64,000 nt of DNA from contig NC_092670.1 in assembly GCF_964355755.1 (NCBI RefSeq), forward strand, positions 114,201 to 178,200. The letters run 5' to 3'. Shown piece after piece: positions 1-51,631 of the stretch (within the stretch, counting starts at the first letter, position 1; each line of letters opens with the position of its first letter). The notes under the pieces were generated by a model. The model had not been told where the DNA came from and did no database searches. It worked only from the letters and a program-made list of their open reading frames with translations. The translations under genes were made by a program, and so were the position numbers. The DNA is from Antedon mediterranea. Its lineage: Eukaryota > Animalia > Echinodermata.

Positions 1-3000
1 TATTATTCAATGACACACTAAACATTCAGTCGTAATAGACCATGCCGTAGAACACCGGTCACTCAAATACTAGTTATGAAGTAAATATGCCATATTATTA
101 ATAACACACTAAACATTCAGTCGTAATGGACCATGCCGTAGAACACCGGTCACTCAAATACTAGGTATGAAGTAAATATGCCATATTATTCAATGACACA
201 CTAAACATTCAGTCGTAATGGACCATGCCGTAGAACACCGGTCACTCAAATACTAGGTATGAAGTAAATATGCCATATTATTAATAACACACTAAACATT
301 CAGTCGTAATGGACCATGCCGTAGAACACCGGTCACTCAAATACTAGGTATGAAGTAAATATTCCATATTATTCAATGACACACTAAACATTCAGTCGTA
401 ATGGACCATGCCGTAGAACACCGGTCACTCAAATACTAGGTATGAAGTAAATATGCCATATTATTAATAACACACTAAACATTCAGTCGTAATGGACCAT
501 GCCGTAGAACACCGGTCACTCAAATACTAGTTATGAAGTAAATATGCCATATTATTAATAACACACTAAACATTCAGTCGTAATGGACCATGCCGTAGAA
601 CACCGGTCACTCAAATACTAGGTATGAAGTAAATATGCCATATTATTCAATGACACACTAAACATTCAGTCGTAATGGACCATGCCGTAGAACACCGGTC
701 ACTCAAATACTAGTTATGAAGTAAATATGCCATATTATTAATAACACACTAAACATTCAGTCGTAATGGACCATGCCGTAGAACGCCGGTCACTCAAATA
801 CTAGTTATGAAGTAAATATGCCATATTATTCAATAACACACTAAACATTCAGTCGTAATGGACCATGCCGTAGAACACCGGTCACTCAAATACTAGTTAT
901 GAAGTAAATATGCCATATTATTCAATGACACACTAAACATTCAGTCGTAATGGACCATGCCGTAGAACACCGGTCACTCAAATACTAGTTATGAAGTAAA
1001 TATGCCATATTATTCAATAACACACTAAACATTCAGTCGTAATGGACGATGCCGTAGAACACCGGTCACTCAAATACTAGGTATGAAGTAAATATGCCAT
1101 ATTATTCAATAACACACTAAACATTCAGTCGTAATGGACCATGCCGTAGAACACCGGTCACTCAAATACTAGGTATGAAGTAAATATGCCATATTATTAA
1201 CACACTAAACATTCAGTCGTAATGGACCATGCCGTAGAACACCGGTCACTCAAATACTAGGTATGAAGTAAATATGCCATATTATTCAATAACACACTAA
1301 ACATTCAGTCGTAATGGACCATGCCGTAGAACACCGGTCACTCAAATACTAGGTATGAAGTAAATATTCCATATTATTCAATGACACACTAAACATTCAG
1401 TCGTAATGGACCATGCCGTAGAACACCGGTCACTCAAATACTAGGTATGAAGTAAATATGCCATATTATTAATAACACACTAAACATTCAGTCGTAATGG
1501 ACCATGCCGTAGAACACCGGTCACTCAAATACTAGGTATGAAGTAAATATGCCATATTATTCAATAACACACTAAACATTCAGTCGTAATGGACCATGCC
1601 GTAGAACACCGGTCACTCAAATACTAGGTATGAAGTAAATATTCCATATTATTCAATGACACACTAAACATTCAGTCGTAATGGACCATGCCGTAGAACA
1701 CCGGTCACTCAAATACTAGGTATGAAGTAAATATGCCATATTATTCAATAACACACTAAACATTCAGTCGTAATGGACCATGCCGTAGAACACCGGCCAC
1801 TCAAATACTAGGTATGAAGTAAATATGCCATATTATTCAATAACACACTAAACATTCAGTCGTAATGGACCATGCCGTAGAACACCGGTCACTCAAATAC
1901 TAGGTATGAAGTAAATATTCCATATTATTCAATGACACACTAAACATTCAGTCGTAATGGACCATGCCGTAGAACACCGGTCACTCAAATACTAGGTATG
2001 AAGTAAATATGCCATATTATTAATAACACACTAAACATTCAGTCGTAATGGACCATGCCGTAGAACACCGGTCACTCAAATACTAGGTATGAAGTAAATA
2101 TGCCATATTATTCAATAACACACTAAACATTCAGTCGTAATGGACCATGCCGTAGAACACCGGTCACTCAAATACTAGGTATGAAGTAAATATTCCATAT
2201 TATTCAATGACACACTAAACATTCAGTCGTAATGGACCATGCCGTAGAACACCGGTCACTCAAATACTAGGTATGAAGTAAATATGCCATATTATTCAAT
2301 AACACACTAAACATTCAGTCGTAATGGACCATGCCGTAGAACACCGGTCACTCAAATACTAGGTATGAAGTAAATATGCCATATTATTCAATAACACACT
2401 AAACATTCAGTCGTAATGGACCATGCCGTAGAACACCGGTCACTCAAATACTAGGTATGAAGTAAATATTCCATATTATTCAATGACACACTAAACATTC
2501 AGTCGTAATGGACCATGCCGTAGAACACCGGTCACTCAAATACTAGGTATGAAGTAAATATGCCATATTATTCAATAACACACTAAACATTCAGTCGTAA
2601 TGGACCATGCCGTAGAACACCGGTCACTCAAATACTAGGTATGAAGTAAATATGCCATATTATTCAATAACACACTAAACATTCAGTCGTAATGGACCAT
2701 GCCGTAGAACACCGGTCACTCAAATACTAGGTATGAAGTAAATATTCCATATTATTCAATGACACACTAAACATTCAGTCGTAATGGACCATGCCGTAGA
2801 ACACCGGTCACTCAAATACTAGGTATGAAGTAAATATGCCATATTATTAATAACACACTAAACATTCAGTCGTAATGGACCATGCCGTAGAACACCGGTC
2901 ACTCAAATACTAGGTATGAAGTAAATATGCCATATTATTCAATAACACACTAAACATTCAGTCGTAATGGACCATGCCGTAGAACACCGGTCACTCAAAT

Positions 3001-4789
3001 ACTAGGTATGAAGTAAATATTCCATATTATTCAATGACACACTAAACATTCAGTCGTAATGGACCATGCCGTAGAACACCGGTCACTCAAATACTAGGTA
3101 TGAAGTAAATATTCCATATTATTCAATGACACACTAAACATTCAGTCGTAATGGACCATGCCGTAGAACACCGGTCACTCAAATACTAGGTATGAAGTAA
3201 ATATGCCATATTATTCAATAACACACTAAACATTCAGTCGTAATGGACCATGCCGTAGAACACCGGTCACTCAAATACTAGGTATGAAGTAAATATGCCA
3301 TATTATTCAATAACACACTAAACATTCAGTCGTAATGGACCATGCCGTAGAACACCGGTCACTCAAATACTAGGTATGAAGTAAATATGCCATATTATTA
3401 ATAACACACTAAACATTCAGTCGTAATGGACCATGCCGTAGAACACCGGTCACTCAAATACTAGGTATGAAGTAAATATGCCATATTATTCAATAACACA
3501 CTAAACATTCAGTCGTAATGGACCATGCCGTAGAACACCGGTCACTCAAATACTAGGTATGAAGTAAATATGCCATATTATTCAATAACACACTAAACAT
3601 TCAGTCGTAATGGACCATGCCGTAGAACACCGGTCACTCAAATACTAGGTATGAAGTAAATATTCCATATTATTCAATGACACACTAAACATTCAGTCGT
3701 AATGGACCATGCCGTAGAACACCGGTCACTCAAATACTAGGTATGAAGTAAATATGCCATATTATTAATAACACACTAAACATTCAGTCGTAATGGACCA
3801 TGCCGTAGAACACCGGTCACTCAAATACTAGGTATGAAGTAAATATGCCATATTATTCAATAACACACTAAACATTCAGTCGTAATGGACCATGCCGTAG
3901 AACACCGGTCACTCAAATACTAGGTATGAAGTAAATATTCCATATTATTCAATGACACACTAAACATTCAGTCGTAATGGACCATGCCGTAGAACACCGG
4001 TCACTCAAATACTAGGTATGAAGTAAATATTCCATATTATTCAATGACACACTAAACATTCAGTCGTAATGGACCATGCCGTAGAACACCGGTCACTCAA
4101 ATACTAGGTATGAAGTAAATATGCCATATTATTCAATAACACACTAAACATTCAGTCGTAATGGACCATGCCGTAGAACACCGGTCACTCAAATACTAGG
4201 TATGAAGTAAATATGCCATATTATTCAATAACACACTAAACATTCAGTCGTAATGGACCATGCCGTAGAACACCGGTCACTCAAATACTAGGTATGAAGT
4301 AAATATTCCATATTATTCAATGACACACTAAACATTCAGTCGTAATGGACCATGCCGTAGAACACCGGTCACTCAAATACTAGGTATGAAGTAAATATGC
4401 CATATTATTCAATAACACACTAAACATTCAGTCGTAATGGACCATGCCGTAGAACACCGGTCACTCAAATACTAGGTATGAAGTAAATATGCCATATTAT
4501 TCAATAACACACTAAACATTCAGTCGTAATGGACCATGCCGTAGAACACCGGTCACTCAAATACTAGGTATGAAGTAAATATTCCATATTATTCAATGAC
4601 ACACTAAACATTCAGTCGTAATGGACCATGCCGTAGAACACCGGTCACTCAAATACTAGGTATGAAGTAAATATGCCATATTATTAATAACACACTAAAC
4701 ATTCAGTCGTAATGGACCATGCCGTAGAACACCGGTCACTCAAATACTAGGTATGAAGTAAATATGCCATATTATTCAATAACACACTG
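1..4789 (+). repeat. 91/92-bp tandem array (~52 copies, open at the window start) in a SUZ12 intron; unit = 3' end of a SUZ12 exon + donor + ~30 nt of intron
   Basis: Unit ACATTCAGTCGTAATGGACCATGCCGTAGAACACCGGTCACTCAAATACTAG(T/G)TATGAA|GTAAATATGCCATATTATTCAATGACACACTAA translates TFSRNGPCRRTPVTQIL(V/G)MK, matching the SUZ12 motif FSRNGPVKRTPITHILVCR. Confidence 0.95.
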
Positions 4790-4901
4790 ACATAAATAAT
4801 AATTTGTAATTCTAAAAGGTAAACAGGTGTTTAGTTTCATACAAATCAAGAATGTCAACTACCATCTGGCTTTTGTTATTTTTGATTTGTTCTTCCTTTA
4901 G

Positions 4902-4994
4902 ACGCCAAAGAAAAGCGCCAACTCTCAATGAATTCCTAGAAGGTGAGGACCGTGACCTTGTCAGTCATCGTCCTTTTGTCTCGGGTCATAATAG
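4902..4994 (+). CDS. SUZ12: Polycomb protein SUZ12, internal exon (visible model: 4902-4994, 5266-5371, 5677-5756, 5883-6153; upstream exons lie outside the window)
   Basis: ttttag|...|gtaagg; encodes RQRKAPTLNEFLEGEDRDLVSHRPFVSGHNR, like human PKRTKASMSEFLESED...SGHNR. Confidence 0.92.
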
Positions 4995-5197: not shown

Positions 5198-5389
<192 letters not shown>

Positions 5390-5676: not shown

Positions 5677-5756
5677 ATGATTGATGAATTTACTGATGTT
5701 AATGAAGGTGAAAAAGAATTGATGAAATTATGGAATGTGCATGTTCTTAAAAATAA
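5677..5756 (+). CDS. SUZ12: SUZ12 exon, VEFS-box
   Basis: AG/GT flanked; MIDEFTDVNEGEKELMKLWNVHVLK is the conserved VEFS core. Confidence 0.95.
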
Positions 5757-5882: not shown

Positions 5883-6153
5883 CTTTATGTCGGACAGTCT
5901 GATACCAAGAGCATGTAGAATGTTTGTACAGGATCATGGACCAGAACTCGTTAAGCTAAACTTAAAGAGTAACTTTTTACTCCATATGGTGAATTTATTT
6001 GACTTCAGCCTTATCCAACCACCACTTATATCCAGTATTATGGCTGATCTGGATAAATTTGAAGAATCTGCTGCCAAAGAACCATCTATTCCCGCAGAAC
6101 ATATGACCTATGACACACCTGGGTGTAGCCAGCTAAAAATAGTTAATGATTGA
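5883..6153 (+). CDS. SUZ12: SUZ12 last coding exon
   Basis: FMSDSLIPRACRMFVQDHG...NFLLHMVNLFDFSLI, TGA at 6151-6153; phase fits the previous exon. Confidence 0.93.
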
Positions 6154-7805: not shown

Positions 7806-8308
7806 GGTTTCGCAATCTTACGAATACGATAACGAAAACGGATACGTCACGCACACGTATTCGTTTTCGTAAGCCATAAACAAATCTGTTTCGCATGTCA
7901 ACAAAATATTGAGGCGCGTCCAAAATATGACTGCGGTAAATTTGAGCGAAACGAAGGTACGTGTTGCTTGGTGCTTGGCTGCCTAGGCCTAGCGTAACAT
8001 CAAAGCGAGTGAGGACTTTAAAATCTGCTATTATTTTATCAAAATTGACCTGGCATTTAGTAAATTACTTTAGTAAATTACTTTCAATAAATCTATAATT
8101 ATATTATAATCATGAATCATTCCTAATTCAAATTCAAAATGTGCAAAATAGATCAAAAACTATACTCGTTTTGTAGTTACGAATATGACTGGTGATATTC
8201 AACACGAATACGCTTTACGAATATGAAATGGGGATCAGCTCAAAAGTTTCACAAATGTATGACGTATCCGTTTTCGTTATCGTATTCGTAAGGTTGCGAA
8301 ACCTCCCT
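7806..8308. mobile_element. MITE-like element with ~44-bp inverted repeats (left end apparently truncated)
   Basis: GGTTTCGCAATCTTACGAATACGATAACGAAAACGGATACGTCA (7806-7849) is the reverse complement of TGACGTATCCG...GTTGCGAAACC (8259-8303). Confidence 0.7.
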
Positions 8309-8309
8309 A

Positions 8310-10017
8310 TTACTATACATGTTGAGGACGTGGAGTTTGTAATCCGCAATCTTAACACCAACAAAGCCGTTGGTCCTGATAATATTTCTCCGCTTATCCT
8401 GAAGGAATGCGCAGCTGAGCTTTCTTCCTCATTGTGTTGTTTATTTAACAAATCACTTTGCTTTGGTACTCTTCCATCTTCATGGAAAGCAGCACATGTA
8501 ACTCCAGTCCATAAGAAAGGAAATAAAGAGGACGTAAAAAATTATAGGCCAATTTCCCTACTAAGTACTGTATCTAAAGTATTTGAACGGTGCGTCTTTG
8601 ACAAAATATATCCTCATCTTGAACACAAGATATATGCTGGGCAACATGGTTTTGTTAAAGGTCGTTCAACAGCAAGTCAACTCACTTAGGTAATCAATGA
8701 TTTTAGTATAGTCTTAGATAAGATAAGCAGTTAGGTCAGACTGATGTAATTTATCTTGATTTTTCCCGTGCTTTTGACTCTGTGCCTCACCTTAAATTGA
8801 TTCATAAACTTCAGTCTTATGGTATATCTGGTAACTTACTTACCTGGTTTCGTAATTATATAACAAACCGAACACAGAAAGTTGTAATTGAAGGTCAGTC
8901 TTCAGAGTGGTTCCCAGTATCATCAGGTGTCCCACAGGGATCGATTCTAGGGCCATTAATGTTTATCCTATATTAATGATCTGCCTGATCATTTAAGTTG
9001 TGACAAAAATATTGCTCTTTATGCTGATGAGAAATTCACAGTGTCCAGGATTGCCATCCACTTCAGATTGATATTGATACTCTGAGCAGCTGGTCTAAAA
9101 AATGGGATTTGAATTTTAATACTTCTAAATGTAAAATTATTTCTATTACCCGATCTCGAAATTCTGTTATTTTTGATTATATAATTAATAACGATATTCT
9201 TGAACGAGTTAGTGAAATTAATGATCTTGGTATCATAATTGATTCTCATTTATCTTGGAAGGCTCATTATAATTATATTATTTCCAAAGCAAATCGTATG
9301 TTAGGCCTGGTTAAACGTGTTAGTTTCCATTGTAATTCACATGTAAAACGGTCTCTTTATTTAAGTATTGTTCGTAGTTACCTTGAATACTGCTCTACTG
9401 TCTGGTCTCCCAATTACAGAACTAACATAAGACAACTTGAGGGAGTTCAGCGTAGAGCAACTAAATTTATTTAAAATAATTTTGAAGCTGATTACAAATG
9501 CAGACTTCAAACATGCAATTTACTACCATTATGTTATAGGCGTCACTTTACCGATATCGTTTTTCTCTTTAAGATTTTCAATTCTAATATAATTAATACC
9601 GACAATTTATTTAATATTCGTAATCCACAACGTGTTACTCGTAGCTCTTCTTCTATTGGTACTCTTTTTGATATTCGTCGCTGCAGAACTGAATCTTCTT
9701 TTCAATCATATATCCCACGTGTTACCAGAATTTGGAATAACTTACCCAGTGAAATCCGCAACTTAAATATTTCTGTTAGTTCTTTTAAAACCAAATTACT
9801 TAATTATCTCAACATTTATTTTTTAAATAATTTTGATATTGAAAATGTGTGTAGTTGGTCGCTTTCTTGTCGATGCTTTTATTGTAGAACGTAATTTATT
9901 TATTTATTTTTCTCTGTTCTGGGTTGACCAACTAGCTAGCCTCCTTTTATAATTGTTTTGTCTTCTTATGTTTATGGCAGAAATTGAATAAATAAATAAA
10001 ATAAATAAAAATAAATA
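8310..10017 (+). mobile_element. 5'-truncated, decayed CR1/L2-clade LINE (RT domain + 3' end + AATA tail)
   Basis: Broken ORFs carrying KAVGPDNI, WKAAHVTPVHKKG, NYRPISLLS, QHGF, YLDFSRAFD, GVPQGSILGP, YAD, LEYCSTVWSP; stops and frameshifts; (AATA)n tail at ~9988-10017. Confidence 0.92.
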
Positions 10018-12052: not shown

Positions 12053-12087
12053 CTTTAAATAAGAAGATCAACAGTTTTATTTAATAA

Positions 12088-12510
12088 CAGTCTTTTTCAA
12101 CAGTACCCTCCAGCGGACACCTTGATGTTTGACATACTACAAGGACCTGCCTGACATCTGTGTTGTAACGATTGGGGTTGTCCCACAGTCTCTTTCAACA
12201 GTACCCTCCAGCGGACACCTTGATGTTTGACATACTAGGAGGGAGCTACCTAACATTTGCGTTGTAACGAGTGTGGTTGTCCCACAGTCTTTTTCAACAG
12301 TACCTTCCAGCGGACACCTTGATGTTTGACATATCTAGGACCTACCTGACATCTGTGTTGTAACGAGTGTGGTTGTCACACAGTCTTTTTCAACAGTACC
12401 CTCCAGCGGACACCTTGATGTTTGACATACTAGGACCTACCTGACATCTGTGTTGTAACGATTTTGGTTGTCCCACAGTCTTTTTCAACAGTACCCTTCA
12501 GCGGACATGT
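12088..12510 (-). repeat. ~95-bp tandem repeat (~4.5 units) made of the 3' end of exon 7 + its donor
   Basis: Sense-strand unit TGTCCGCTGGAGGGTACTGTTGAAAAAGACTGTGGGACAACC...ACAACACAGATGTCAG|GTAGGTCCTAGTATGTCAAACATCAAGG. Confidence 0.9.
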
Positions 12511-13126: not shown

Positions 13127-14230
13127 CTAACACATCATAAGTTGAAGTAGGAAATTTTTCGGTTGTTCCAATGTGGTTCTCGTAATGCGTAGAAGGTTGA
13201 GGTATGTATTCTTTTTCGGTAGTGGATGCTTTGGTTGTTCCAATGTGGTCCTCGTAATGTGTAGAAGGTTGAGGTATGTATTCTTTTTCGGTAGTAGTGG
13301 ATGGTTCGGTTGTAACAATGTGGTCCTCGTAATGCGTAGAAGGTTGAGGTATGTATTCTTTTTCGGTAGTAGATGTTTCGGTTGTTCCAATGTGGTCCTC
13401 GTAATGCGTAGAAGGTTGAGGTATGTATTCTTTTTTGGTAGTGGATGCTTCGGTTGTAACAATGTGGTCCTCGTAATGTGTAGAAGGTTGAGGTATGTAT
13501 TCTTTTTCGGTAGTGGATGGTTCGGTTGTTCCAATGTGGTCCTCGTAATGCGTAGAAGGTTGAGGTATGTATTCTTTTTTGGTAGTGGATGGTTCGGTTG
13601 TTCCAATGTGGTCCTCGTAATGCGTAGAAGGTTGAGGTATATATTCTTTTTTAGTAGTGGATGCTTTGGTTGTAACAATGTGGTCCTCGTAATGCGTAGA
13701 AGGTTGAGGTATGTATTCTTTTTTAGGTGTGGATGGTTCGGTTGTTCCAATGTGGTCCTCGTAATGTGTAGAAGGTTGAGGTATGTATTCTTTTTTGGTA
13801 GTGGATGCTTCGGTTGTTCCAATGTGGTCCTCGTAATGCGTAGAAGGTGTAGGTATATATTCTTTTTTGGTAGTGGATGCTTCGGTTGTAACAATGTGGT
13901 CCTCGTAATGCGTAGAAGGTTGAGGTATATATTCTTTTTTGGTAGTGGATGCTTCGGTTGTAACAATGTGGTCCTCGTAATGTGTAGAAGGTTGAGGTAT
14001 GTATTCTTTTTTGGTAGTGGATGCTTCGGGATTCAATCCATTGCAATAGCGTTCAACTGTTCCAGCATAAGGACAAGAAATTCCACTGCCATCGTCTGTC
14101 GCGACAAACCACTGTCCTTCTGGACACGAATATCGTCTTACTATGTTAGACATACATATAAGGCCTGACTGGCAATCCTGGTCATCATTGTAGAAGGCTA
14201 TCACAGTTGTTTCTAGCGAAGCACAATGGC
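13127..14230 (-). CDS. Mucin/peritrophin-like protein exon 6 (CBM14-like domain 4 + ~12 x 24-aa Thr-rich repeat)
   Basis: ttttag|...|gtaagt, 1104 nt, phase 1-1; HCASL...DCQSGLIC...SCPEGQWF...SC...YC, then TTEASTTKKEYIPQPSTHYEDHI(G/V) repeats. Confidence 0.88.
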
Positions 14231-14864: not shown

Positions 14865-16940
14865 TTTCCAAAGAACTATAGTCAGTTGTTACATCAATGT
14901 GGTCCTCGTAATGCGTAGAAGGTTCAGGTATGTATTCTTTTTCTGTAGTGGATGCTTCGGTTGTTCCAATGTGGTCCTCGTAATGTGTAGAAGGTTGAGG
15001 TATGTATTCTTTTTTGGTAGTGGATGATTCGGTTGTTCCAATGTGGTCCTCGTAATGTGTAGAAGGTTCAGGTATGTATTCTTTTTCGGTAGTGGATGGT
15101 TCGGTTGTTCCAATGTGGTCCTCGTAATGTGTAGAAGGTTGAGGTATATATTCTTTTTTGGTAGTGGATGCTTTGGTTGTTCCAATGTGGTCCTCGTAAT
15201 GTGTAGAAGGTTGAGGTATGTATTCTTTTTTGGTAGTGGATGGTTCGGTTGTTCCAATGTGGTCCTCGTAATGCGTAGAAGGTTCAGGTATGTATTCTTT
15301 TTTGGTAGTGGATGTTTCGGTTGTTCCAATGTGGTCCTCGTAATGCGTAGAAGGTTGAGGTATGTATTCTTTTTTGGTAGTGGATGATTCGGTTGTTCCA
15401 ATGTGGTCCTCGTAATGTGTAGAAGGTTCAGGTATGTATTCTTTTTCGGTAGTTGATGGTTCGGTTGTTCCAATGTGGTCCTCGTAATGGGTAGAAGGTT
15501 GAGGTATATATTCTTTTTTTGTAGTGGATGCTTTGGTTGTTCCAATGTGGTCCTCGTAGTGTGTAGAAGGTTGAGGTATGTATTCTTTTTTGGTAGTGGA
15601 TGGTTCGGTTGTTCCAATGTGGTCCTCGTAATGCGTAGAAGGTTGAGGTATGTATTCTTTTTTGGTAGTGGATGTTTCGGTTGTTCCAATGTGGTCCTCG
15701 TAATGCGTAGAAGGTTGAGGTATGTATTCTTTTTTGGTAGTGGATGGTTCGGTTGTTCCAATGTGGTCCTCGTAATGTGTAGAAGGTTGAGGTATGTATT
15801 CTTTTTTGGTAGTGGATGGTTCGGTTGTAACAATGTGGTCCTCGTAATGCGTAGAAGGTTGAGGTATATATTCTTTTTTGGTAGTGGATGCTTCGGTTGT
15901 AACAATGTGGTCCTCGTAATGCGTAGAAGGTTGAGGTATGTATTCTTTTTTGGTAGTGGATGCTTCGGTTGTAACAATGTGGTCCTCGTAATGCGTAGAA
16001 GGTTGAGGTATGTATTCTTTTTTGGTAGTGGATGCTTCGGTTGTTCCAATGTGGTCCTCGTAATGCGTAGAAGGTTGAGGTATGTATTCTTTTTTGGTAG
16101 TGGATGGTTCGGTTGTTCCAATGCGGTCCTCGTAATGCGTAGAAGGTTGAGGTATGTATTCTTTTTCGGTAGTGGATGCTTCGGTTGTTCCAATGTGGTC
16201 CTCGTAATGCGTAGACGGTTGAGGTATGTATTCGTTTTCGGTAGTGGATGTTTCGGTTGTTCCAATGCGGTCCTCGTAATGCGTAGAAGGTTGAGGTATG
16301 TATTCTTTTTCGGTAGTGGATGCTTCGGTTGTTCCAATGCGGTCCTCGTAATGCGTAGAAGGTTGAGGTATGTATTCTTTTTCGGTAGTGGATGGTTCGG
16401 TTGTTCCAAGGTGGTCCTCGTAATGCGTAGAAGGTTGAGGTATGTATTCTTTTTCGGTAGTGGATGGTTCGGTTGTTCCAATGTGGTCCTCGTAATGTGT
16501 AGAAGGTTGAGGTATGTATTCTTTTTCGGTAGTGGATGCTTCGGTTGTAACAATGTGGTCCTCGTAATGCGTAGAAGGTTGAGGTATGTATTCTTTTTTG
16601 GTAGTGGATGGTTCGGTTGTTCCAATGTGGTCCTCGTAATGCGTAGAAGGTTGAGGTATGTATTCTTTTTTGATAGTGGATGCTTCGGTTGTTCCAATGT
16701 GGTCCTCGTAATGCGTAGAAGGTTGAGGTATGTATTCTTTTTTGGTAGTGGATGCTTCGGTTGTTCCAATATCTTGTATATTTTCTTCATAATCGCAAAT
16801 ACCCTCTGCTTGATTGAACACTAATGACCACGGACATTTCATTAACCAAAATCGTTCAGATTCTGAGCATTGGTAATATGTTGAAATATCGTATGGATTT
16901 GCATACAGCCCTTCTTTACCTTCTTCTGGACACACAAATG
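14865..16940 (-). CDS. Mucin/peritrophin-like protein exon 5 (CBM14-like domain 3 + ~26 x 24-aa repeat)
   Basis: aaatag|...|gtgagt, 2076 nt, phase 1-1; CPEEGKEGLYANPYDISTYYQC...KCPWSLVFNQAEGICDY, then 72-bp repeats. Confidence 0.88.
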
Positions 16941-23578: not shown

Positions 23579-23750
23579 TTATTGGTCCCTCAAAACATGA
23601 AAAATCAAAAGAAATTATTTCGCTTATTAAAAAGGAAAAATAAAGAGTTAAATTTTACAGATTTAGGCTTTAGGAGGAAAAATGCTAAACAATTGTTTTT
23701 TTAATATGGCCAGTCGTTAAATAATTTCAGATTTTATCTTGTATTTCAAG

Positions 23751-24450
23751 GTATGAGTCAAATAAATTTGAAATGGGCGAACATTCAGGAACACACATAG
23801 ATGCCCCTTCACACTTTTCTGAGGGTAAACAGAGGATCCATGATATACCAAACGAACATTTATTTGGCCCTGGTATTAAGGTGGATATAACAGAAAAGGC
23901 ATCCATAAATTCTGATGCATTACTCGAAGTTGAAGATTTAAAGAGCTGGGAGGAAGAAAATGGCATCATACCAAATGGTGCTATCTTAATGGTGTTTACG
24001 GATTGGGGACGATTTTACCCAAATCGTACAGCATACTTTGGCTCGGATCGTAACGACTCTTTCACAGACGAAAACGGGAAGTCGCTACTTCATTTTCCAG
24101 GGGTTAGTCCAGAAGCTGCCAATTGGTTGATTATTAATCGTGATGTCGTTGGGGTTGGTATTGATACACCATCTATTGACTATGGTCAGAGCCTTACTTT
24201 TTCTACACATGTAAAATTGTATGAACAAAACATATATGGATTGGAAAACGTTGCTAACCTTGATCAGCTGCCGACAACAGGGAGCACGGTTTACGCTTTA
24301 CCTATCAAGATTAAGGATGGCAGTGGTGCTCCAGTTAGACTGTTTGCTGTTGCTGATGATGTTGGTACAAATAGTGCAACATCAATGCCATTCTCCTTCT
24401 TCATTATTTTCTTCTTAAGCATCATATCTCTTTCTTTTAATCATAATTAG
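23751..24450 (+). CDS. Cyclase family protein exon 2 (protein ~292 aa, hydrophobic C-terminal tail)
   Basis: HSGTHIDAPSH = HxGTHxDxPxH metal-binding motif; HFPG, GIDTPSID, ENVANL, GSGAPVR. Confidence 0.93.
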
Positions 24451-27745: not shown

Positions 27746-27830
27746 CAAACAGGAAAAGTTCCATCTTCATTTTTACCCAATACATTATCACGAATATATT
27801 CATATGCACCCATTCTACAACCAGTGTATA
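27746..27830 (-). CDS. SLC25A27: UCP4 exon 4
   Basis: tttttttag|...|gtatgt; VYTGCRMGAYEYIRDNVLGKNEDGTFPVW. Confidence 0.93.
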
Positions 27831-30800
27831 CTAAAAAAACAGAAACAAAACATTATATATTCATATGCACTCATTCTACAACCAGTGTATAGGAAAGAAA
27901 CAGAAACAAAACATTATATATTCATATGCACTCATTCTACAACCAGTGTATACTAAAGAAACAGAAACAAAACATTATATATTCATATGCACCCATTCTA
28001 CAACCAGTGTATACTAAAGAAACAGAAACAAAACATTATATATTCATATGCACTCATTCTACAACCAGTGTATACTAAAGAAACAGAAACAAAACATTAT
28101 ATATTCATATGCACTCATTCTACAACCAGTGTATACTAAAGAAACAGAAACAAAACATTATATATTCATATGCACTCATTCTACAACCAGTGTATACTAA
28201 AGAAACAGAAACAAAACATTATATATTCATATGCACTCATTCTACAACCAGTGTATACTAAAGAAACAGAAACAAAACATTATATATTCATATGCACTCA
28301 TTCTACAACCAGTGTATAGGAAAGAAACAGAAACAAAACATTATATATTCATATGCACTCATTCTACAACCAGTGTATACTAAAGAAACAGAAACAAAAC
28401 ATTATATATTCATATGCACTCATTCTACAACCAGTGTATACTAAAGAAACAGAAACAAAACATTATATATTCATATGCACTCATTCTACAACCAGTGTAT
28501 AGGAAAGAAACAGAAACAAAACATTATATATTCATATGCACTCATTCTACAACCAGTGTATAGGAAAGAAACAGAAACAAAACATTATATATTCATATGC
28601 ACTCATTCTACAACCAGTGTATACTAAAGAAACAGAAACAAAACATTATATATTCATATGCACTCATTCTACAACCAGTGTATAGGAAAGAAACAGAAAC
28701 AAAACATTAAATATTCATATGCACTCATTCTACAACCAGTGTATAGGAAAGAAACAGAAACAAAACATTATATATTCATATGCACTCATTCTACAACCAG
28801 TGTATACTAAAGAAACAGAAACAAAACATTATATATTCATATGCACTCATTCTACAACCAGTGTATACTAAAGAAACAGAAACAAAACATTATATATTCA
28901 TATGCACTCATTCTACAACCAGTGTATAGAAAAGAAACAGAAACAAAACATTATATATTCATATGCACTCATTCTACAACCAGTGTATACTAAAGAAACA
29001 GAAACAAAACATTATATATTCATATGCACTCATTCTACAACCAGTGTATAGGAAAGAAACAGAAACAAAACATTATATATTCATATGCACTCATTCTACA
29101 ACCAGTGTATAGGAAAGAAACAGAAACAAAACATTATATATTCATATGCACTCATTCTACAACCAGTGTATAGGAAAGAAACAGAAACAAAACATTATAT
29201 ATTCATATGCACCCATTCTACAACCAGTGTATACTAAAGAAACAGAAACAAAACATTATATATTCATATGCACTCATTCTACAACCAGTGTATAGGAAAG
29301 AAACAGAAACAAAACATTATATATTCATATGCACTCATTCTACAACCAGTGTATACTAAAGAAACAGAAACAAAACATTATATATTCATATGCACTCATT
29401 CTACAACCAGTGTATAGGAAAGAAACAGAAACAAAACATTATATATTCATATGCACTCATTCTACAACCAGTGTATACTAAAGAAACAGAAACAAAACAT
29501 TATATATTCATATGCACTCATTCTACAACCAGTGTATAGGAAAGAAACAGAAACAAAACATTATATATTCATATGCACTCATTCTACAACCAGTGTATAG
29601 GAAAGAAACAGAAACAAAACATTATATATTCATATGCACCCATTCTACAACCAGTGTATACTAAAGAAACAGAAACAAAACATTATATATTCATATGCAC
29701 TCATTCTACAACCAGTGTATAGGAAAGAAACAGAAACAAAACATTATATATTCATATGCACTCATTCTACAACCAGTGTATACTAAAGAAACAGAAACAA
29801 TACATTATATATTCATATGCACTCATTCTACAACCAGTGTATAGGAAAGAAACAGAAACAAAACATTATATATTCATATGCACTCATTCTACAACCAGTG
29901 TATACTAAAGAAACAGAAACAAAACATTATATATTCATATGCACTCATTCTACAACCAGTGTATAGGAAAGAAACAGAAACAAAACATTATATATTCATA
30001 TGCACTCATTCTACAACCAGTGTATACTAAAGAAACAGAAACAAAACATTATATATTCATATGCACTCATTCTACAACCAGTGTATACTAAAGAAACAGA
30101 AACAAAACATTATATATTCATATGCACTCATTCTACAACCAGTGTATACTAAAGAAACAGAAACAAAACATTATATATTCATATGCACTCATTCTACAAC
30201 CAGTGTATACTAAAGAAACAGAAACAAAACATTATATATTCATATGCACTCATTCTACAACCAGTGTATAGGAAAGAAACAGAAACAAAACATTATATAT
30301 TCATATGCACTCATTCTACAACCAGTGTATAGGAAAGAAACAGAAACAAAACATTATATATTCATATGCACTCATTCTACAACCAGTGTATAGGAAAGAA
30401 ACAGAAACAAAACATTATATATTCATATGCACTCATTCTACAACCAGTGTATACTAAAGAAACAGAAACAAAACATTATATATTCATATGCACCCATTCT
30501 ACAACCAGTGTATAGGAAAGAAACAGAAACAAAACATTATATATTCATATGCACTCATTCTACAACCAGTGTATACTAAAGAAACAGAAACAAAACATTA
30601 TATATTCATATGCACTCATTCTACAACCAGTGTATACTAAAGAAACAGAAACAAAACATTATATATTCATATGCACCCATTCTACAACCAGTGTATAGGA
30701 AAGAAACAGAAACAAAACATTATATATTCATATGCACTCATTCTACAACCAGTGTATAGGAAAGAAACAGAAACAAAACATTATATATTCATATGCACTC

Positions 30801-33800
30801 ATTCTACAACCAGTGTATACTAAAGAAACAGAAACAAAACATTATATATTCATATGCACTCATTCTACAACCAGTGTATAGGAAAGAAACAGAAACAAAA
30901 CATTATATATTCATATGCACTCATTCTACAACCAGTGTATAGGAAAGAAACAGAAACAAAACATTATATATTCATATGCACTCATTCTACAACCAGTGTA
31001 TACTAAAGAAACAGAAACAAAACATTATATATTCATATGCACCCATTCTACAACCAGTGTATAGGAAAGAAACAGAAACAAAACATTATATATTCATATG
31101 CACTCATTCTACAACCAGTGTATAGGAAAGAAACAGAAACAAAACATTATATATTCATATGCACTCATTCTACAACCAGTGTATACTAAAGAAACAGAAA
31201 CAAAACATTATATATTCATATGCACTCATTCTACAACCAGTGTATACTAAAGAAACAGAAACAAAACATTATATATTCATATGCACCCATTCTACAACCA
31301 GTGTATAGGAAAGAAACAGAAACAAAACATTATATATTCATATGCACTCATTCTACAACCAGTGTATACTAAAGAAACAGAAACAAAACATTATATATTC
31401 ATATGCACCCATTCTACAACCAGTGTATAGGAAAGAAACAGAAACAAAACATTATATATTCATATGCACTCATTCTACAACCAGTGTATAGGAAAGAAAC
31501 AGAAACAAAACATCATATATTCATATGCACTCATTCTACAACCAGTGTATACTAAAGAAACAGAAACAAAACATTATATATTCATATGCACTCATTCTAC
31601 AACCAGTGTATACTAAAGAAACAGAAACAAAACATTATATATTCATATGCACTCATTCTACAACCAGTGTATAGGAAAGAAACAGAAACAAAACATTATA
31701 TATTCATATGCACTCATTCTACAACCAGTGTATAGGAAAGAAACAGAAACAAAACATTATATATTCATATGCACTCATTCTACAACCAGTGTATAGGAAA
31801 GAAACAGAAACAAAACATTATATATTCATATGCACTCATTCTACAACCAGTGTATACTAAAGAAACAGAAACAAAACATTATATATTCATATGCACTCAT
31901 TCTACAACCAGTGTATAGGAAAGAAACAGAAACAAAACATTATATATTCATATGCACTCATTCTACAACCAGTGTATAGGAAAGAAACAGAAACAAAACA
32001 TTATATATTCATATGCACTCATTCTACAACCAGTGTATAGGAAAGAAACAGAAACAAAACATTATATATTCATATGCACTCATTCTACAACCAGTGTATA
32101 CTAAAGAAACAGAAACAAAACATTATATATTCATATGCACTCATTCTACAACCAGTGTATACTAAAGAAACAGAAACAAAACATTATATATTCATATGCA
32201 CTCATTCTACAACCAGTGTATAGGAAAGAAACAGAAACAAAACATTATATATTCATATGCACTCATTCTACAACCAGTGTATAGGAAAGAAACAGAAACA
32301 AAACATTATATATTCATATGCACTCATTCTACAACCAGTGTATAGGAAAGAAACAGAAACAAAACATTATATATTCATATGCACTCATTCTACAACCAGT
32401 GTATACTAAAGAAACAGAAACAAAACATTATATATTCATATGCACTCATTCTACAACCAGTGTATAGGAAAGAAACAGAAACAAAACATTATATATTCAT
32501 ATGCACTCATTCTACAACCAGTGTATAGGAAAGAAACAGAAACAAAACATTATATATTCATATGCACCCATTCTACAACCAGTGTATACTAAAGAAACAG
32601 AAACAAAACATTATATATTCATATGCACTCATTCTACAACCAGTGTATAGGAAAGAAACAGAAACAAAACATTATTATACAGATATTGACTGCTTAGAGG
32701 TTAAATATAAGATTTGACATCCCCGAGGGAATGATATTAAGTTCGAGGGAATATATATTTCCCGAAGCGCCAGCTGAGGGAAATATATAATCCCCGAGAA
32801 CTTAATATCATTCCCGAGGGGATGTCAAATCTTATATTTAACCGATATAAAAGGCAATATCTGTTATATTATATAGCCAAGAACAAGTCTGCTGGGTTGG
32901 GTGAAGCTAGGCTAGGCCTCCTATTATTTGTATTGTATTTAAAACAAGCCTGCCTAGACACCTTACCTTGCGAAGAATAATATACAGATAATTACTAATT
33001 AATGATTCCTTGGCAATAAAATATTCACTTAGGCCTAGGTCGTTTAAATTAACAGAAGAATTTCCATCAATAAGCCTATTAATAATAATATTATAATCAG
33101 GTAGGCCGAATAAACAATTCGTCTTCTCTCGATCTTCGAGGAGCCGAATCACCGGATGTTCAGCGCGTACTAGTTACTAGGTTACTACCGTGAGTATTGA
33201 CCAATCACAAACGGTGTTTCATCACATTTAGGGTGGACTTATAACAAATGAGGGCGCTATGTATGCATAGCTTAAATAGTTTAGAAGATTAATTTCTTCA
33301 AGCAAATTCCGTGGCCCAGCGGATGAAACGTTGTCTTGCGATGGAGTGACAATTCCACCCGAGTTCAAGATCGAGTAGATGACTTTTGTTTATTTATCGG
33401 CAACGCGAGTGTTGGCACACGAAAATTACACAGTCAATATCATCGTACTCGAGAATCTATATGTTTAATGACAGGGGACACGATAATTACGCGAAAATTA
33501 CACAGTCAATATCATCGTTCTCGAGGATATATACGATTTACGATCCTCGCAGCGGTAGTCATGTGATGCAGTTTCAACCAATCACGTTAGCGTATTTACA
33601 TAGGCTATGTAATATATATTCATATGCACTCATTCTACAACCAGTGTATAGGAAAGAAACAGAAACAAAACATTATATATTCATATGCACTCATTCTACA
33701 ACCAGTGTATAGGAAAGAAACAGAAACAAAACATTATATATTCATATGCACTCATTCTACAACCAGTGTATAGGAAAGAAACAGAAACAAAACATTATAT

Positions 33801-34595
33801 ATTCATATGCACTCATTCTACAACCAGTGTATAGGAAAGAAACAGAAACAAAACATTATATATTCATATGCACTCATTCTACAACCAGTGTATAGGAAAG
33901 AAACAGAAACAAAACATTATATATTCATATGCACTCATTCTACAACCAGTGTATAGGAAAGAAACAGAAACAAAACATTATATATTCATATGCACTCATT
34001 CTACAACCAGTGTATACTAAAGAAACAGAAACAAAACATTATATATTTATATGCACTCATTCTACAACCAGTGTATACTAAAGAAACAGAAACAAAACAT
34101 TATATATTCATATGCACTCATTCTACAACCAGTGTATACTAAAGAAACAGAAACAAAACATTATATATTCATATGCACTCATTCTACAACCAGTGTATAC
34201 TAAAGAAACAGAAACAAAACATTATATATTCATATGCACTCATTCTACAACCAGTGTATACTAAAGAAACAGAAACAAAACATTATATATTCATATGCAC
34301 TCATTCTACAACCAGTGTATAGGAAAGAAACAGAAACAAAACATTATATATTCATATGCACTCATTCTACAACCAGTGTATACTAAAGAAACAGAAACAA
34401 AACATTATATATTCATATGCACTCATTCTACAACCAGTGTATACTAAAGAAACAGAAACAAAACATTATGATCATTTATATGCACTCATTCTACAACCAG
34501 TGTATAGGAAAGAAACAGAAACAAAACATTATATATTCATATGCACCCATTCTACAACCAGTGTATAGGAAAGAAACAGAAACAAAACATTATGA
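27795..34595 (-). repeat. 61-bp tandem array (~95 copies, interrupted at ~32676-33613) made of the UCP4 exon-4 acceptor + the exon start
   Basis: Sense unit ATAATGTTTTGTTTCTGTTTCTTT(AG/CC)|TATACACTGGTTGTAGAATG(A/G)GTGCATATGAATAT. Confidence 0.95.
32676..33613. mobile_element. ~0.94-kb insertion in the 61-bp array, with a long internal hairpin (family uncertain, possibly Crypton-like non-autonomous)
   Basis: Splits one unit within TATA; ends TTATACAG.../...CTATGTAA; imperfect palindrome at 32679-32864. Confidence 0.75.
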
Positions 34596-34963
34596 TCATT
34601 TATATGTTGGATGTTTTTATTTACAAGCATGTTCAATTTCCAGAAATACTAATTGAATTTTTGTCCTACATTGCTAAAAAACATTTTATTTATGTACACT
34701 AACTGGTATTTTACTAACTTGTTCACACTGCCTTTGCAGAAGCTGTTTGTAGGCCCCATTATGTAATTATCGTAATATTAAGGCCCCGAAATCTGTCCGA
34801 CCTGGGGGCCTCCACAGCCCCCTAGCCCCTGCCAATAGGTGCATGCAAAATCATCCATACAGACCTACAGTACCAACTTTCTTCAATGTCGGCAGGTATA
34901 TAAATAATAATAGTAATAAGACTAAATGTACAATTTACAAAATCTAAATAAATCTGTACTGAC

Positions 34964-39479: not shown

Positions 39480-40612
39480 CTGCAATACACTTCCCATAAA
39501 AGTAAATTTGTTGTATTTTCTTTCAATAAATTTATCAAGTTTATTTTTAAAGGCGTTTACTGTGGTGGTGTTAACGGCTTCCTCTGGTAGACTATTCCAT
39601 AGGTTAACAATTCTGTAAGAAAAATTGTACTTGCGGATATCCAGTTTAGGTCGTCGCTTATATTATGGTGTATCTATGTCTTCTTAGGTTTCTCTCGTAT
39701 GTTTTCATAGGGAAGAAGTTACGCATTCCACTACCACTTAGGCCTGTCACCATTTTAAAAACTTGAATCATATCTCCTCGTAATCTTCTAAAGGCCAATG
39801 TTGGTAGATTTAGTCGTTTTAGGCGTTCTGTATAATCCAGGTCTTTTAATGATGGAATTGCTTTTGTTGCTCTCCTTTGAACTTTTTCAATGCATGTTAT
39901 ATTTTTACGAAGAAACGGAGACCATACACAGTTAGCATATAAAGGTGAGGTCTCACTAATGATTTAAAAAGTGGAACAAACATTTCCTCATCAAGGTAGT
40001 TAAATGTATGTCTGATCAGACCAACAACTCTATTGGCTCTATTACTGACGATTCCAACGTGTTTGCTGAACTTGAGGGTCTGGTCAAATATAACGCCCAA
40101 GTCTTTTTCTTCCTCTTTTGCCTGCAAAGCCTCCGCTGACATCGTATAATTGTACAATTCAAGGTTCCTGCCAAGATGCATAATGCAGCACTTATTGACG
40201 TTAAACTTCAACTGCCACGTTTTTGCCCAATCGTTAGCTGCATCAATATCACGTTGGAGGGCTTCACAGTCAGCCCGACTCTTAATGTGATTGAACAGTT
40301 TGGTATCATCAGCAAACATCTCTGTGTGGGTTTCTATATATCGGGTAGATCGTTTATGTAGATCAAGAATAGTATAGGTCCGAGGACACTTCCTTGGGGT
40401 ATCCCGCTTGTAACATGAGACCAAAACGATAAGGTTCCTTTAATTGCAACACGCTGCTTCCTTCCAAGAGTAAGAAACATTCTATCCATTTTAAAAGATT
40501 ACCATTAATTCCATATGCTTGTATTTTTTTTCAGTAGTCGTTGGTGTGGGACAGTATCGAAGGCCTTGCTAAAATCCAGGTATGCTACGTCTACACCACC
40601 TTCTTCATCAAT
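39480..40612 (-). mobile_element. 5'-truncated, decayed CR1-clade LINE
   Basis: Minus-strand YLDFSKAFDTVPH, SGIPQG, FADDTKL, EKDLGV, LVRPHL and RLRGDMIQVFKM motifs with frameshifts. Confidence 0.9.
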
Positions 40613-45084: not shown

Positions 45085-45890
45085 GTAAATAGATTTTATT
45101 TAATTGATTATTTGATTAAAATGATTATCATGTAGGCCTGGCCCTAGGCCTAGGCCTAGCCTAGTAGCTAGGATATATTGCATTTTATTTATCTGTGTTT
45201 TTGTTTTATATATAGGCCTAGCCTAGCCTCCTAGGCCTAGGTAGGCCTCTAACTAGTAGGCCTAGGCCTAATTAATAGGCTAGGCTAGGCCCCACCTTCT
45301 TATAAATAATAATATTGAATAAGCCGCCCTCTATTTTTAGGCCTCTCTCAGAGAGATAGAGAGAGACAGAGAACAGCCCTGTGTGTGTAGTATACTGTTA
45401 TATAGTTATATAGTTAGTAGTACTAGTAGTAACTAGTATGTAGAGTAGGCCTAGGCCTAGTAGTGCTAGCCTAGATGATAAAAATTAGTAGGCCTGGGTG
45501 TGTCGAAAGCGAAGACCTCGAAAGCGAATATCGAAGACCGAAGACCTCGAAAGCGAAGACCCTACGAAATGGTAGTGTGCACAAACTCCGACCAAAATCA
45601 TACAAAATCGTGATAACACCTTGAATTTACAGATTCTAAAAAAATATTTCGATTTTAATTGTTACGTTATCAAAAAACATGACTTTATCTATGAACAGGC
45701 TCACGCATTTTCACCAATGGAGTTAATATGTGATATGGTTTTACGAACAAACACATCGCGCTATTTGCAAGGCAACGGACGCACAAGAAGGACCTCGCAC
45801 AGAGCATTGAATTGAATGCAAAATTAAATGTCACTTTTGTTCCAATAACTTTGTAGCACACGTCGCCTACAATTTAAACCCATAGCCAAT

Positions 45891-47152
45891 AGACACGTTT
45901 CGCGCTCGCGAGGTCACCGTCAGTTTGACCTTTTAGTGGGTATACAATGGTAAACAAACACAGCGAGAGGTATGTTAAAGCATGGGAGAACTGAGAGATG
46001 ATCATCTTAAAAAGCAATCGTCAAAACTAGCCTTTTGATGGAATGGATGTTATTTATTTTCTAAACTTATGTTTTATATTCACTGTAGAATTATTTGGGC
46101 ATTTGGTTCGGAATCATCGACTTTATTTATGTATTGTCATTTTTGGTTTGACACATATATATTACGGTGCATTTAATACATGTTAACTGTTGATTTTATT
46201 TACAAATGTTGCGTAAATATATTAATTATTATCTTTCATTCTTCTTCATGCTCCTATTGCATCTTCCATGTATTATGTGATGTTCTTCTTCATGCTCCTA
46301 TTGCATCTTCCATGTATTATGTGATGTTCTTCTTCATGCTCCTATTGCATCTTCCATGTATTATGTGATGTTCTTCTTCATGCTCCTATTGCATCTTCCA
46401 TGTATTATGTGATGTTCTTCTTCATGCTCCTATTGCATCTTCCATGTATTATGTGATGTTCTTCTTCATGCTCCTATTGCATCTTCCATGTATTATGTGA
46501 TGTTCTTCTTCATGCTCCTATTGCATCTTCCATGTATTATGTGATGTTCTTCTTCATGCATCTGTTGCATCTTCCATGTATTATGTGATGTTCTTCTTCA
46601 TGCTCCTATTGCATCTTCCATGTATTATGTGATGTTCTTCTTCATGCATCTGTTGCATCTTCCATGTATTATGTGATGTTCTTCTTCATGCATCTGTTGC
46701 ATCTTCCATGTATTATGTGATGTTCTTCTTCATGCTCCTATTGCATCTTCTATGTATTATGTGATGTTCTTCGGCGCTTAAACAAACACCCAAGCCTAGT
46801 AGACGAAGTACCGCATCAGGCAACGCCACCGGGCGGGCGGAGAGACCCGAGCACATCGTGGACGTACCTTTCCTTGAAAAATTTCCAAGATTTTGCGCCA
46901 CTATCCTTCGGAGCCGACGCAAACCACTCAGCAAGTGTTTGAAAATTAAAAACAGGAATATTATTCAGTGATTTTGTGTAGTTAAATTCACGATTTATCC
47001 AACATATACAACATTTATGATGCACCTTGCAACAAAAGCACTCGGCAGTCGCCATTTCGCTATGCTTCAACACGCACTAGGCGAGAGGTGTTCGATTTGT
47101 TTACAAATCTATACCCACTATTTCTGATTGGTCGCGAGCGAGAAACGTGTCT
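45891..47152 (-). mobile_element. ISL2EU-like deletion derivative nested in the foldback
   Basis: AT|AGACACGTTTCGCGCTCGCGA ... TCGCGAGCGAGAAACGTGTCT|AT; remnant ...AKSWKFFKERYVHDV resembles the N-terminus of the ISL2EU exonuclease ORF (from recall). Confidence 0.7.
46238..46772. repeat. 44-bp minisatellite (~12 copies) inside the ISL2EU-like element
   Basis: TTCTTCTTCATGCTCCTATTGCATCTTCCATGTATTATGTGATG. Confidence 0.95.
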
Positions 47153-47922: not shown

Positions 47923-50109
47923 TTACGGCGCACTTTGCGTGGATACGTTGCGTCGATCTGAAAACCAATTTCAGCTCTTAAAATATTTCCCGGGCCGATG
48001 ACAGTTCGTCCCAATAGCTTACCGTGAACTAACGGAACTTTATTTTATATCTTTTTATTGTCAAAATCAAAAATTATACTGTATTCCGAATTATGATTTG
48101 ACAAAAGGCTAATAGGCCTACTGTAGAACGAACGATAGGCATCACATTCTGAAGATTTTGCTCGATCGTTAACCCGTTATAATAGTATAATTCTCTTAGA
48201 TTTGTTTGTTTGTGTCAATTCTATATTTAAATGGTCATTATACAACCGGTAACCTGTTTCTTCAATTTTTTAAAATTTATATTTTCTTTTGTTAATGGAG
48301 ACTCGTGGCAGGGATATGCAAACATTTACAAGTGGGACGTCGACAATCTGTTGAAAATCGGGAGACTGTTGAATAGTCGTCTCATTCACAAGCCTGTGAG
48401 ATAGAAGGTTGGGGGTTAGAGTGGTTAAGCCCGATAAAAATTCACCATCCTTAATAAAGACATGTATAGAGAGTAACTCTTTTTTTTGTATTCACCACGG
48501 GCAATGATTCAGAAGTCAGTTTCTTTTTTTTTAAACTTTGATGATGAGGACAATTGTGGTTGGCGGAACTGGAACTTCATTAAACATGTCTTTTGACAGT
48601 GTCGGTAAACGTAATACCGATATAAATAAACACCCGTCACTAATCAGATTGCAACCGTAACAAAATCGACAATTTTGGAGCGAATATTTTTTATTTCAAT
48701 CTTTGTTTTGAATGGCTTTTGTCTTTGTTAACGTTGACATAATGGCATAATTAAATGTTATTCTGAATTATGGAAGCCGTGAAACAGATGATATGTCGCA
48801 GGAAACGATCGATTATAACCAAAATTTGCAGAACGCTGATTCCTATCGTTCGTTCTTTTTAGCTTTTTGTCAAATCATAATTTGAATATGTTCTGTCAAA
48901 TTTGGCCTGGAAATATTTTAAGAGCTGGAATTAGTTTCCAGATCCACGCAAAGTGCGCATTAAGAACAAACTTGCGTGTCCTTACAAGTGGGAACCAACG
49001 TGTTCAACACCGTTTATGCCTTACGTTCATCGTAATGATTCTCTCGTGAGGGGATGCAAAATAGAGTATTTTCTTATGTTGCGCGTCAATACGATACGTT
49101 GCGGCAGGATGTTTTTGTTAGTTAGTTAGTTAGTGGTTCATACGTTGGTTAATGAAATATTTATTTTACTTTTTACATTTTTCTTCTTTACATATTACTG
49201 TCGCTTCACCAATCACACTAACCGATACTGATAATATTATTTGTCCATTATTATTAGAAAAACATTTTTAAACTGGCGAATAATTAAATCAGCAATACTG
49301 CACGATAGGCTAAAATGGGGAAAATGTAAACGTTTAAAATACTATACAGAATAATTAAAGGAAAATAAATATCTTATTGTATTTATTCATACATTTTAGA
49401 TAATATGCAAATATTATAGATAATAAACATAATATCAACATATTTAAATGCAAAAAAAAAAGGATCTCTAAGTTGTATTCACACGTATAACATTTTTTAA
49501 AACAAGTGTAAAATCTATGATACGGACACTTTTTATATAGGCTCTAAAATCAGCCTAAATAGGGCTATCGCCATCCTTTACTTCTTATAATTTTTACATA
49601 TTGTAGTTTATTTCTATATTTTTCTATACAATTTGGCTATGGTTTTAAATTGTAAGCAATGCATTCAATTCAATGCTCTGTGCGATGTCCTTCTTGTGCG
49701 TCCGTCGCCTTGCAAATAGCGCGATGTGTTTGTTCGTAAAACCATATCACATATTAACTCCATTGGCGAATACACGTGATAAAGTCATGTTTTTTGATAA
49801 CATAACGATTAAAATCGAAATATTTTTTTAGAATCTGTAAATTCAAGGTGTTCTCATCAGTTGTGTGTGATTTTGGTCCGATTTTGTGTACACTACCATT
49901 TCGTAGGGTCTTCGCTTTCGAGGTCTTCGGTATTCGATCTTCGCTTTCGAGGTCTTCGCTTTCGACACACCCGGCCTAGGCCTACTACCAAGAATAAGCT
50001 AGCAAGAGTTCTTCGGCCAGACGTATGCTCATACTAAATAAACATACAAATTTTAATGTTCGTCATCGTGGCAATTAAATTATCATTTTGTTTTCATGTT
50101 ATTGTTTAA

Positions 50110-50855: not shown

Positions 50856-50955
50856 GCTGCGGGATCATGAAACATGTATACGTTTGTCAGCAGAAATTAT
50901 GGAGAAGATAAATGAAAGAAATGATTTGCAACGAAATGGAAAAAGCCATTCTAGA
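50856..50955 (+). CDS. STX8: STX8 exon 2
   Basis: LRDHETCIRLSAEIMEKINERNDLQRNGKSHSR, like human TCQIAQEIAEKIQQRN. Confidence 0.9.
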
Positions 50956-51020
50956 GTAAAAAGCTATCTTAAACTTTGTTATTGTTTTTATACTTTTTTT
51001 TATTGAATATGCCATTTTAA

Positions 51021-51631
51021 AGCTCAGGTACAGGCATAAATTTTAAATATAATATCTGGTAAATTGTACATAAATCAAATATTTGTAACAGAAATCAAGA
51101 CAAAAAAAACATGAATTTCCCCATATATGGTCAAATACAAAATTTGGTAAAATTCTGCCAAAAAAACTAGGAAGACTTTTTTTCAGTACGGTAGTTAGGT
51201 AGTTAACATAATGTAATAACATGTCTGGTGACTCCCTAGAAGGTGAAAAAAGATAGTGGATATACGGTGGATAATTTTTGCTATAGCATGAAAATAAAAT
51301 TCTGAAGTTGAATAAAAATACCAGAAATGTATAATAATAAAAAAAAAAAGTTATATTACCTATATTTAGTCATCTGATAACATTTTTTACCAAACCATTT
51401 ATTTTTCATAACTTTTTAAAATGCCTCTCTATTTTCAAAATTTGTGTACAAAAGAATAGAGATTTTACTGTGTAATTTGAACTATCACCCCACTGATAAA
51501 GAAAGTGCTTATTTTCAAAAAGCTCGTGTAACACAAATAAAATCCCAAAAATTATGAAACATAGGGGAAACTATAGATCGACAATTATTGGAATGTATGA
51601 TCAATAGACATTTTTTGCCCGCACCTGGCCT
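51021..51631. mobile_element. Older Kolobok-like MITE
   Basis: TTAA|AGCTCAGGTACAGGCA ... TGCCCGCACCTGGCCT|TTAA (degenerate TIR). Confidence 0.55.

Follow-up and report, generated by a model that had tools for sequence, protein, structure and literature searches.

The Polycomb gene SUZ12 of the feather star Antedon mediterranea raises the question of what happens to splicing when the end of a coding exon and its 5' splice site are repeated in tandem into the following intron, and when most of the repeats have gained a second donor in the form of an AG|GT juxtaposition. The original prediction was that a core gene thereby carries a long run of competing donors with a recursive-splicing signature. 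We analyzed this locus in a window of 64,000 nucleotides, the whole stretch of DNA under study. The sequence argues that the array is a minisatellite spanning an exon-intron boundary and that its extra donors are likely silent passengers, tolerated by the gene. The copies are likely ignored during splicing, and the AG|GT most plausibly represents a point mutation that has been homogenised across the array.

The assignment to SUZ12 was borne out by both the unit and its flank. A 20-aa peptide from the repeat unit gave SUZ12 proteins as the 8 best of 10 PDB matches (E 0.0013-0.0027), and the exons downstream of the array matched the VEFS-Box. The last exon found RefSeq XP_071952960.1, a suz12-like protein of this species that is a gene model rather than an RNA read; it contains PF23320 and PF09733 (Zn finger and VEFS-Box), with the VEFS-Box at residues 476-605. 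The four downstream exons, together with those array copies that retain an ancestral T (see below), equal this protein letter for letter. A splice search over nearby GT/AG positions, in which copy 11 of the array was substituted for the exon end (which lies upstream of the window), returned one solution. It joins the original phase-2 donor to position 4902 in frame, as had been predicted, and reproduces XP_071952960.1, where the repeated motif occurs a single time, in the form with Val, together with the K|R join. The resulting gene model is as follows:

4758..4901, plus strand: presumed pre-amplification intron of 144 nt, of which 4789-4901 is unique sequence; its acceptor is U-rich; from the splice solution
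4902..4994, plus strand: SUZ12 exon, residues 459/460-490 of XP_071952960.1; from protein match and splice solution
5266..5371, plus strand: SUZ12 exon, VEFS-Box; from domain and protein match
5677..5756, plus strand: SUZ12 exon, VEFS-Box; from protein match and splice solution
5883..6153, plus strand: last coding exon of SUZ12, to the stop codon; from domain and protein match

The array itself was delimited with TRF, which reported a tandem repeat at 1-4788 with a period of 92, 52.2 copies and 97% matches. Splitting it by unit gave 52 copies of 88-92 bp each, in agreement with the predicted count of about 52. This number is a minimum because position 1 of the window, 21 nt before copy 1, falls within the intron part of an earlier copy. 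Each 92-bp unit comprises roughly 58 nt from the end of a SUZ12 exon (encoding residues 441-459), then the donor and then some 34 nt of intron sequence. The coding part ends in Met-Lys and is followed by the GT donor, and translation confirmed that reading through this donor meets a stop at once. The peptide that had been predicted for every unit was found in 49 of the 52 copies, but copies 1, 12 and 20 have one further coding change each. Its leading Thr proved to be junction sequence; the protein has Ala there (Ala440), which is invariant in 120/120 orthologs. The features of the array are:

1..4788, plus strand: minisatellite with a 92-bp unit in 52 visible copies, extending further upstream, beyond the window edge; from TRF and unit splitting
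22-112, plus strand: copy 1, with the T; from unit splitting
479-569, plus strand: copy 6, with the T; from unit splitting
662..1028, plus strand: copies 8-11, with the ancestral T (Val); from unit splitting and ortholog comparison
4746..4756, plus strand: derived YAG|GT in the final unit of the array; its GT is at 4751 and the acceptor is 151 nt away; the site is present in 46/52 copies
4755..4763, plus strand: original phase-2 donor in the final unit, with its GT at 4758; every one of the 52 copies has this donor

Unit splitting recovered the same six Val copies that had been predicted: the T is found in copies 1, 6, 8, 9, 10 and 11, and the remaining 46/52 copies have a G at this position, giving a YAG|GT that precedes the original donor by 7 nt. 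The corresponding Val457 is invariant in the 120 orthologs, a set made up of 119 best matches (many of them from fish) and one more. Val is thus the ancestral state, as predicted, and the G is derived and excluded from the real exon. Visible copy 1 was considered as the real exon end and rejected; it has a Gly>Arg change that is absent from the RefSeq protein. The RefSeq protein implies that the true SUZ12 exon end is a Val copy located upstream of the window.

All six T copies lie among the first 11, which are proximal to the exon, and there are none in the last 41, a distribution that fits conservation at the array edge and also selection against strong donors near the exon. Four common variants occur in 46, 14, 12 and 17 of the 52 copies, in seven combinations that form short recurring runs in non-periodic order, with private changes in addition. 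Copy 11 (937-1028) is identical to the inferred ancestral unit, and the mean distance of the copies from it is 1.9 edits. Together with the mixed short runs, this distance points to a young array under turnover. Array length and variant order are those of one haplotype, as represented in the assembly sequence.

These observations are consistent with the following origin. A single 92-bp tandem duplication across the boundary of the 144-nt intron would have been followed by expansion to at least 52 copies through slippage or unequal exchange; the protein is unchanged because every copy except the first is intronic. The T>G change would then have arisen in a single copy within the intron and, like the other variants, have been spread by the ordinary turnover of the array. 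The copies lie head to tail, the unit holds host exon, splice site and intron sequence, and the last copy passes cleanly into unique intron at the 3' exit. The repeat junction and this exit have a short CAT word in common, with a one- or two-base difference; this is compatible with microhomology, the 5' breakpoint being outside the window. The pre-array length of 144 nt is similar to that of the other short introns of these genes, which are mostly 100-330 nt.

During splicing, the upstream acceptor would most likely be paired with the first donor met, i.e., that of the true Val copy, which lies beyond the upstream edge of the window; the later copies would have no usable acceptor ahead of them. 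Only the first original donor yields SUZ12 protein. Extension of the exon to any later copy meets a stop directly after the first donor, the new donor joined to 4902 shifts the frame and reaches a stop after 12 codons, and every alternative join tested terminates before the VEFS-Box. Rare use of another donor would give a premature stop and probably nonsense-mediated decay.

Minisatellites of this kind are known from human genes. In F7, 6-16, CBS, LMNB2 and PDGF the first monomer lies across the donor (Borensztajn et al. 2006, PMC1557585), and the portions of that report drawn on here give units of 37 bp in 5-9 copies for F7 IVS7, 25 pseudo-sites for 6-16, a location in IVS13 for CBS, 100 bp in 10-15 copies for LMNB2 and 81 bp in 16-18 copies for PDGF intron 4. 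As in SUZ12, these arrays extend tandem copies of the donor into the intron and leave the protein intact; LMNB2 and PDGF also resemble the SUZ12 array in unit length and layout. According to the same portions, F7 minigenes used only the most upstream of identical donors, and in LMNB2 and PDGF the authentic donor alone was used (PMC1557585). The F7 work was done in mammalian cells with at most 12 copies. The SUZ12 array differs in having at least 52 copies, about 2x the largest number listed in those portions, a unit with 58 nt of exon instead of the 4 nt of F7, and a second, derived donor in 88% of copies; it is also located in an echinoderm.

A second precedent comes from amphioxus, in which "mirages" have been described in Adh3, the globins BflGb6 and BflGb9, troponin C and PGBD5 (PMC3087553, PMC3902484). 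The accessible text of these reports describes duplication of either intron-exon boundary, reportedly with splicing undisturbed. The arrays of the feather star share with mirages the tandem copies of 5' or 3' boundaries, the presence of both types within a single genome, interiors that are homogenised while the edge copies stay distinct, and loss of the signal in some copies, but they have 52 and 96 copies, as opposed to 3-6 in BflGb6. Repeats of exon-intron boundaries can also seed new introns, as far as the part of that study used here describes (PMC2812944). Among the papers listed by a literature search that covered few subscription journals, none reported this locus or crinoid arrays of this type.

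The second of the two arrays just mentioned provided an internal control:

27794..34606, minus strand: array of 96 units of 61 bp, each with the end of the intron, the acceptor and the beginning of the exon, within intron 3 of a UCP4-like gene; from TRF, protein match and splice solution

Here the terminal copy is the authentic site and supplies the real start of the exon at 27830; the corresponding SUZ12 copy would be located beyond the upstream edge of the window. In 85/96 copies, or 88%, there is a derived Gly>Ser variant, the same share as that of the G in the SUZ12 array (46/52 copies), and this variant creates no AG|GT. This result indicates that variants sweep through these arrays whether a signal is gained or lost. 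The AG is kept in 45/96 copies, with a strong acceptor (15.4 bits), and has been lost from 51/96 by a two-base change exactly on the AG (to CC in 50 copies and to TC in 1). The longer T run occurs only in the real last copy, and the copy just before it has no AG. Variants thus weaken signals in the UCP4 array and strengthen one in the SUZ12 array. At 32676-33612 an unrelated segment of some 940 bp, which may be a non-autonomous mobile element, interrupts the UCP4 array.

The relative strength of the two donors counts against the passenger reading. With a weight matrix built from 16 other local donors, the original donor scored 4.9 bits, below the median of 6.7 for the 17 donors (leave-one-out), and the new donor scored 7.9. 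The matrices are rough, being based on 16-17 local sites, of which 12 were checked against RefSeq proteins and 5 by open frame only. The predicted closeness of the new donor to consensus holds on this small local matrix but not for U1 pairing, where the two were about level, with 7 matches plus 1 wobble for the new donor and 8 matches for the original. In addition, only 2 of the 276 possible single substitutions in the unit create YAG|GT, and 1/276 creates a new donor that scores at least as well as the original. The commonest variant is that donor-making substitution. The chance of this is about 3% for four common variants, reckoned post hoc, and its rarity is the best argument for a function of the site.

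If the stronger derived donor were used at times in the nearest G copies, frameshifted and decay-bound transcripts would result, and array length or allele might tune SUZ12 dose. The matrix scores, the confinement of the T copies to the exon-proximal end and the stops that precede the VEFS-Box in all alternative joins tested would fit such leaky competition, as would the use of one or two extra copies in 6-16 and CBS, according to the portions of the human report cited above (PMC1557585). However, U1 pairing of the new donor is no better than that of the original, and F7 copies raised to a consensus value of 82-91, one of them TAG/gt, did not compete in the experiments described there; only perfect sites did so (PMC1557585). 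We therefore regard dose control by the array as unlikely. The predicted competing 5' sites do exist as sequence, but the F7 precedent indicates that downstream copies do not compete short of perfect consensus.

Splicing in two steps at the YAG|GT was the more striking part of the original prediction. It could proceed acceptor first, with the site as a ratchet point, or donor first, with the new donor of the last copy joined to 4902 and a second cut to follow. The juxtaposition, an intronic YAG immediately before GT, is that of known recursive sites. It is present in 46/52 copies, among them all of the last 41, and the rarity of the substitution that made it also speaks for this explanation. 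However, YAG|GT occurs 2.6 times per kb in non-array DNA of the window, both strands counted, and two further features of recursive sites, an acceptor-quality tract with a branch point and conservation, were not found at this one. There are 3 T and 9 pyrimidines in the 17 nt upstream of the new AG; every one of the 17 true acceptors in the window has more (7-14 T, 10-15 pyrimidines). No yTnAy was found at -15 to -45 of the new AG, and this motif is present there in 13/17 true acceptors. On the weight matrix the new AG scored -1.3, which places it at the 61st percentile among 313 background AGs. One true acceptor scored -2.9 on the same matrix, so that this small matrix alone is no bar to acceptor status, and the AG-free zone of 23 nt is within the range of true acceptors.

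Conservation also argues against a recursive site, in that the G replaces a base of the Val codon that is invariant in 120/120 orthologs. The host intron is now at least 4.9 kb long and would be 144 nt without the array. Recursive sites in mouse brain are conserved, pyrimidine-rich and located in introns over 51 kb, as stated in the available part of that study (PMC8797253). Other partly available sources report 3' recursive events in introns of 0.5-5 kb (10.1101/159350) and poor acceptor scores for some lariat-supported distal exonic sites (PMC10156609), which favor the recursive reading, and prevention of re-splicing at regenerated sites by the exon junction complex (PMC8184009), which does not. 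The SUZ12 array thus differs from recursive sites in its missing U-rich tract and branch motif and in not being conserved, and it has 46 copies 92 nt apart in an intron that would originally have been short. Recursive splicing at the YAG|GT is not supported by the sequence, and we consider it very unlikely.

A variant of the donor-first route would give the derived AG|GT a benefit. The donors of the last copy lie 144-151 nt from the acceptor, a spacing like that of the other short introns here, and might promote removal of the former short intron. Splicing from this copy's original donor would trap 4.7 kb of array in the mRNA. The new donor, if used instead, would place an AG at the edge of the exon, and a second cut from the true donor could then restore normal SUZ12 mRNA. 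The derived site might then have been favored as an "undo" site that makes a wrong donor choice reversible, and a young minisatellite would have evolved its own donor-first recursive site. This proposal seems to us highly doubtful; it is weakened by the poor tract and by the block that the exon junction complex is described as placing on re-splicing in the part of that work available (PMC8184009).

The unit might also give rise to new exons. A weak CAG in it, paired with the original donor, would define an in-frame cassette of 51 nt that repeats a 17-residue motif. The phase of these 51 nt matches, the new donor would give a frameshifting 44 nt instead, a yTnAy lies at -20 of the CAG that follows a 91-bp copy, and such a model has been proposed for the lancelet mirages, according to the accessible text of that report (PMC3087553). 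However, that CAG is preceded by 4 T of 17 and 8-9 A, and no AG of the unit is preceded by a U-rich tract (3-5 T of 17, versus 7-14 in true acceptors). Furthermore, the neighboring intron would be 41 nt long, and the single member of the RefSeq cluster carries the motif once. Exon birth is therefore most improbable. It is equally hard to credit that the array is heavily over-expanded or mis-assembled, as the near identity of its copies (97%) might suggest, given its seven variant combinations in non-periodic order, its private changes, its clean exit to unique intron and flanking exons that equal the annotated protein exactly.

With the silent-passenger reading preferred, the SUZ12 array as it stands is an ordinary, though large, case of a known phenomenon. 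Within a single intron, an essential and deeply conserved gene appears to tolerate about 98 decoy donors; the UCP4 array, with 45 intact decoy acceptors, is the acceptor-side mirror in the same 64 kb. The pair constitutes a natural test of first-donor and last-acceptor choice in a short-intron invertebrate. The locus would gain weight if RNA showed recursive use of the AG|GT or a SUZ12 dose set by the array; the sequence supports neither.

Arrays are frequent in this region: 20 arrays with units of at least 30 bp cover 22,184 bp, or 34.7% of the window. A random unit of 32-92 bp placed in the collapsed gene spans crosses a splice site 12-39% of the time. Among the 7 arrays inside the mapped spans of the SUZ12, UCP4 and syntaxin-8-like genes, 2 span a splice site, versus 1.6 expected from the summed per-length chances. 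These counts, which are small, do not support the idea that splice sites attract arrays in this genome.

The third of these genes, which we take to be syntaxin-8-like, consists of five open-frame exons with a family match at 50856-54281 (plus strand); no further exon of it was found up to 64000. Its introns contain arrays of 76, 38, 62 and 32 bp, the first of which begins 17 nt after a weak donor. Arrays of 79, 69 (54 copies), 33 and 38 bp follow at 54399-62269, several of them with donor-like or acceptor-like words but none with an exon to match; compared with 108 relatives of the flanking gene, these arrays after 54.3 kb showed no consistent similarity. At 54755-54875 (plus strand) is a sequence that, by eye, looks like a derivative of 5S rRNA.

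Two 72-bp arrays at 13158-14029 and 14895-16770 (minus strand) lie inside the span of a multi-CBM_14 gene (peritrophin-like, chitin-binding), and read by eye they appear to be Thr/Pro-rich coding repeats. They contain GT/AG-like words on the plus strand, but the gene is on the minus strand. A 96-bp repeat at 12087-12507 overlaps CBM_14 matches. Elsewhere in the window are a long exon with a putative cyclase domain (PF04199) at 23725-24447 (plus strand) and broken, LINE-like RVT_1 fragments with stops and frameshifts at 8189-9900 (plus strand) and 39900-40500 (minus strand). Finally, the segments at 45480-46230 and 49130-49980 are similar to each other and inverted, about 4 kb apart, with mirror 15-bp units at 45503 and 49907 (TRF), and are possibly the ends of a foldback element or DNA transposon.
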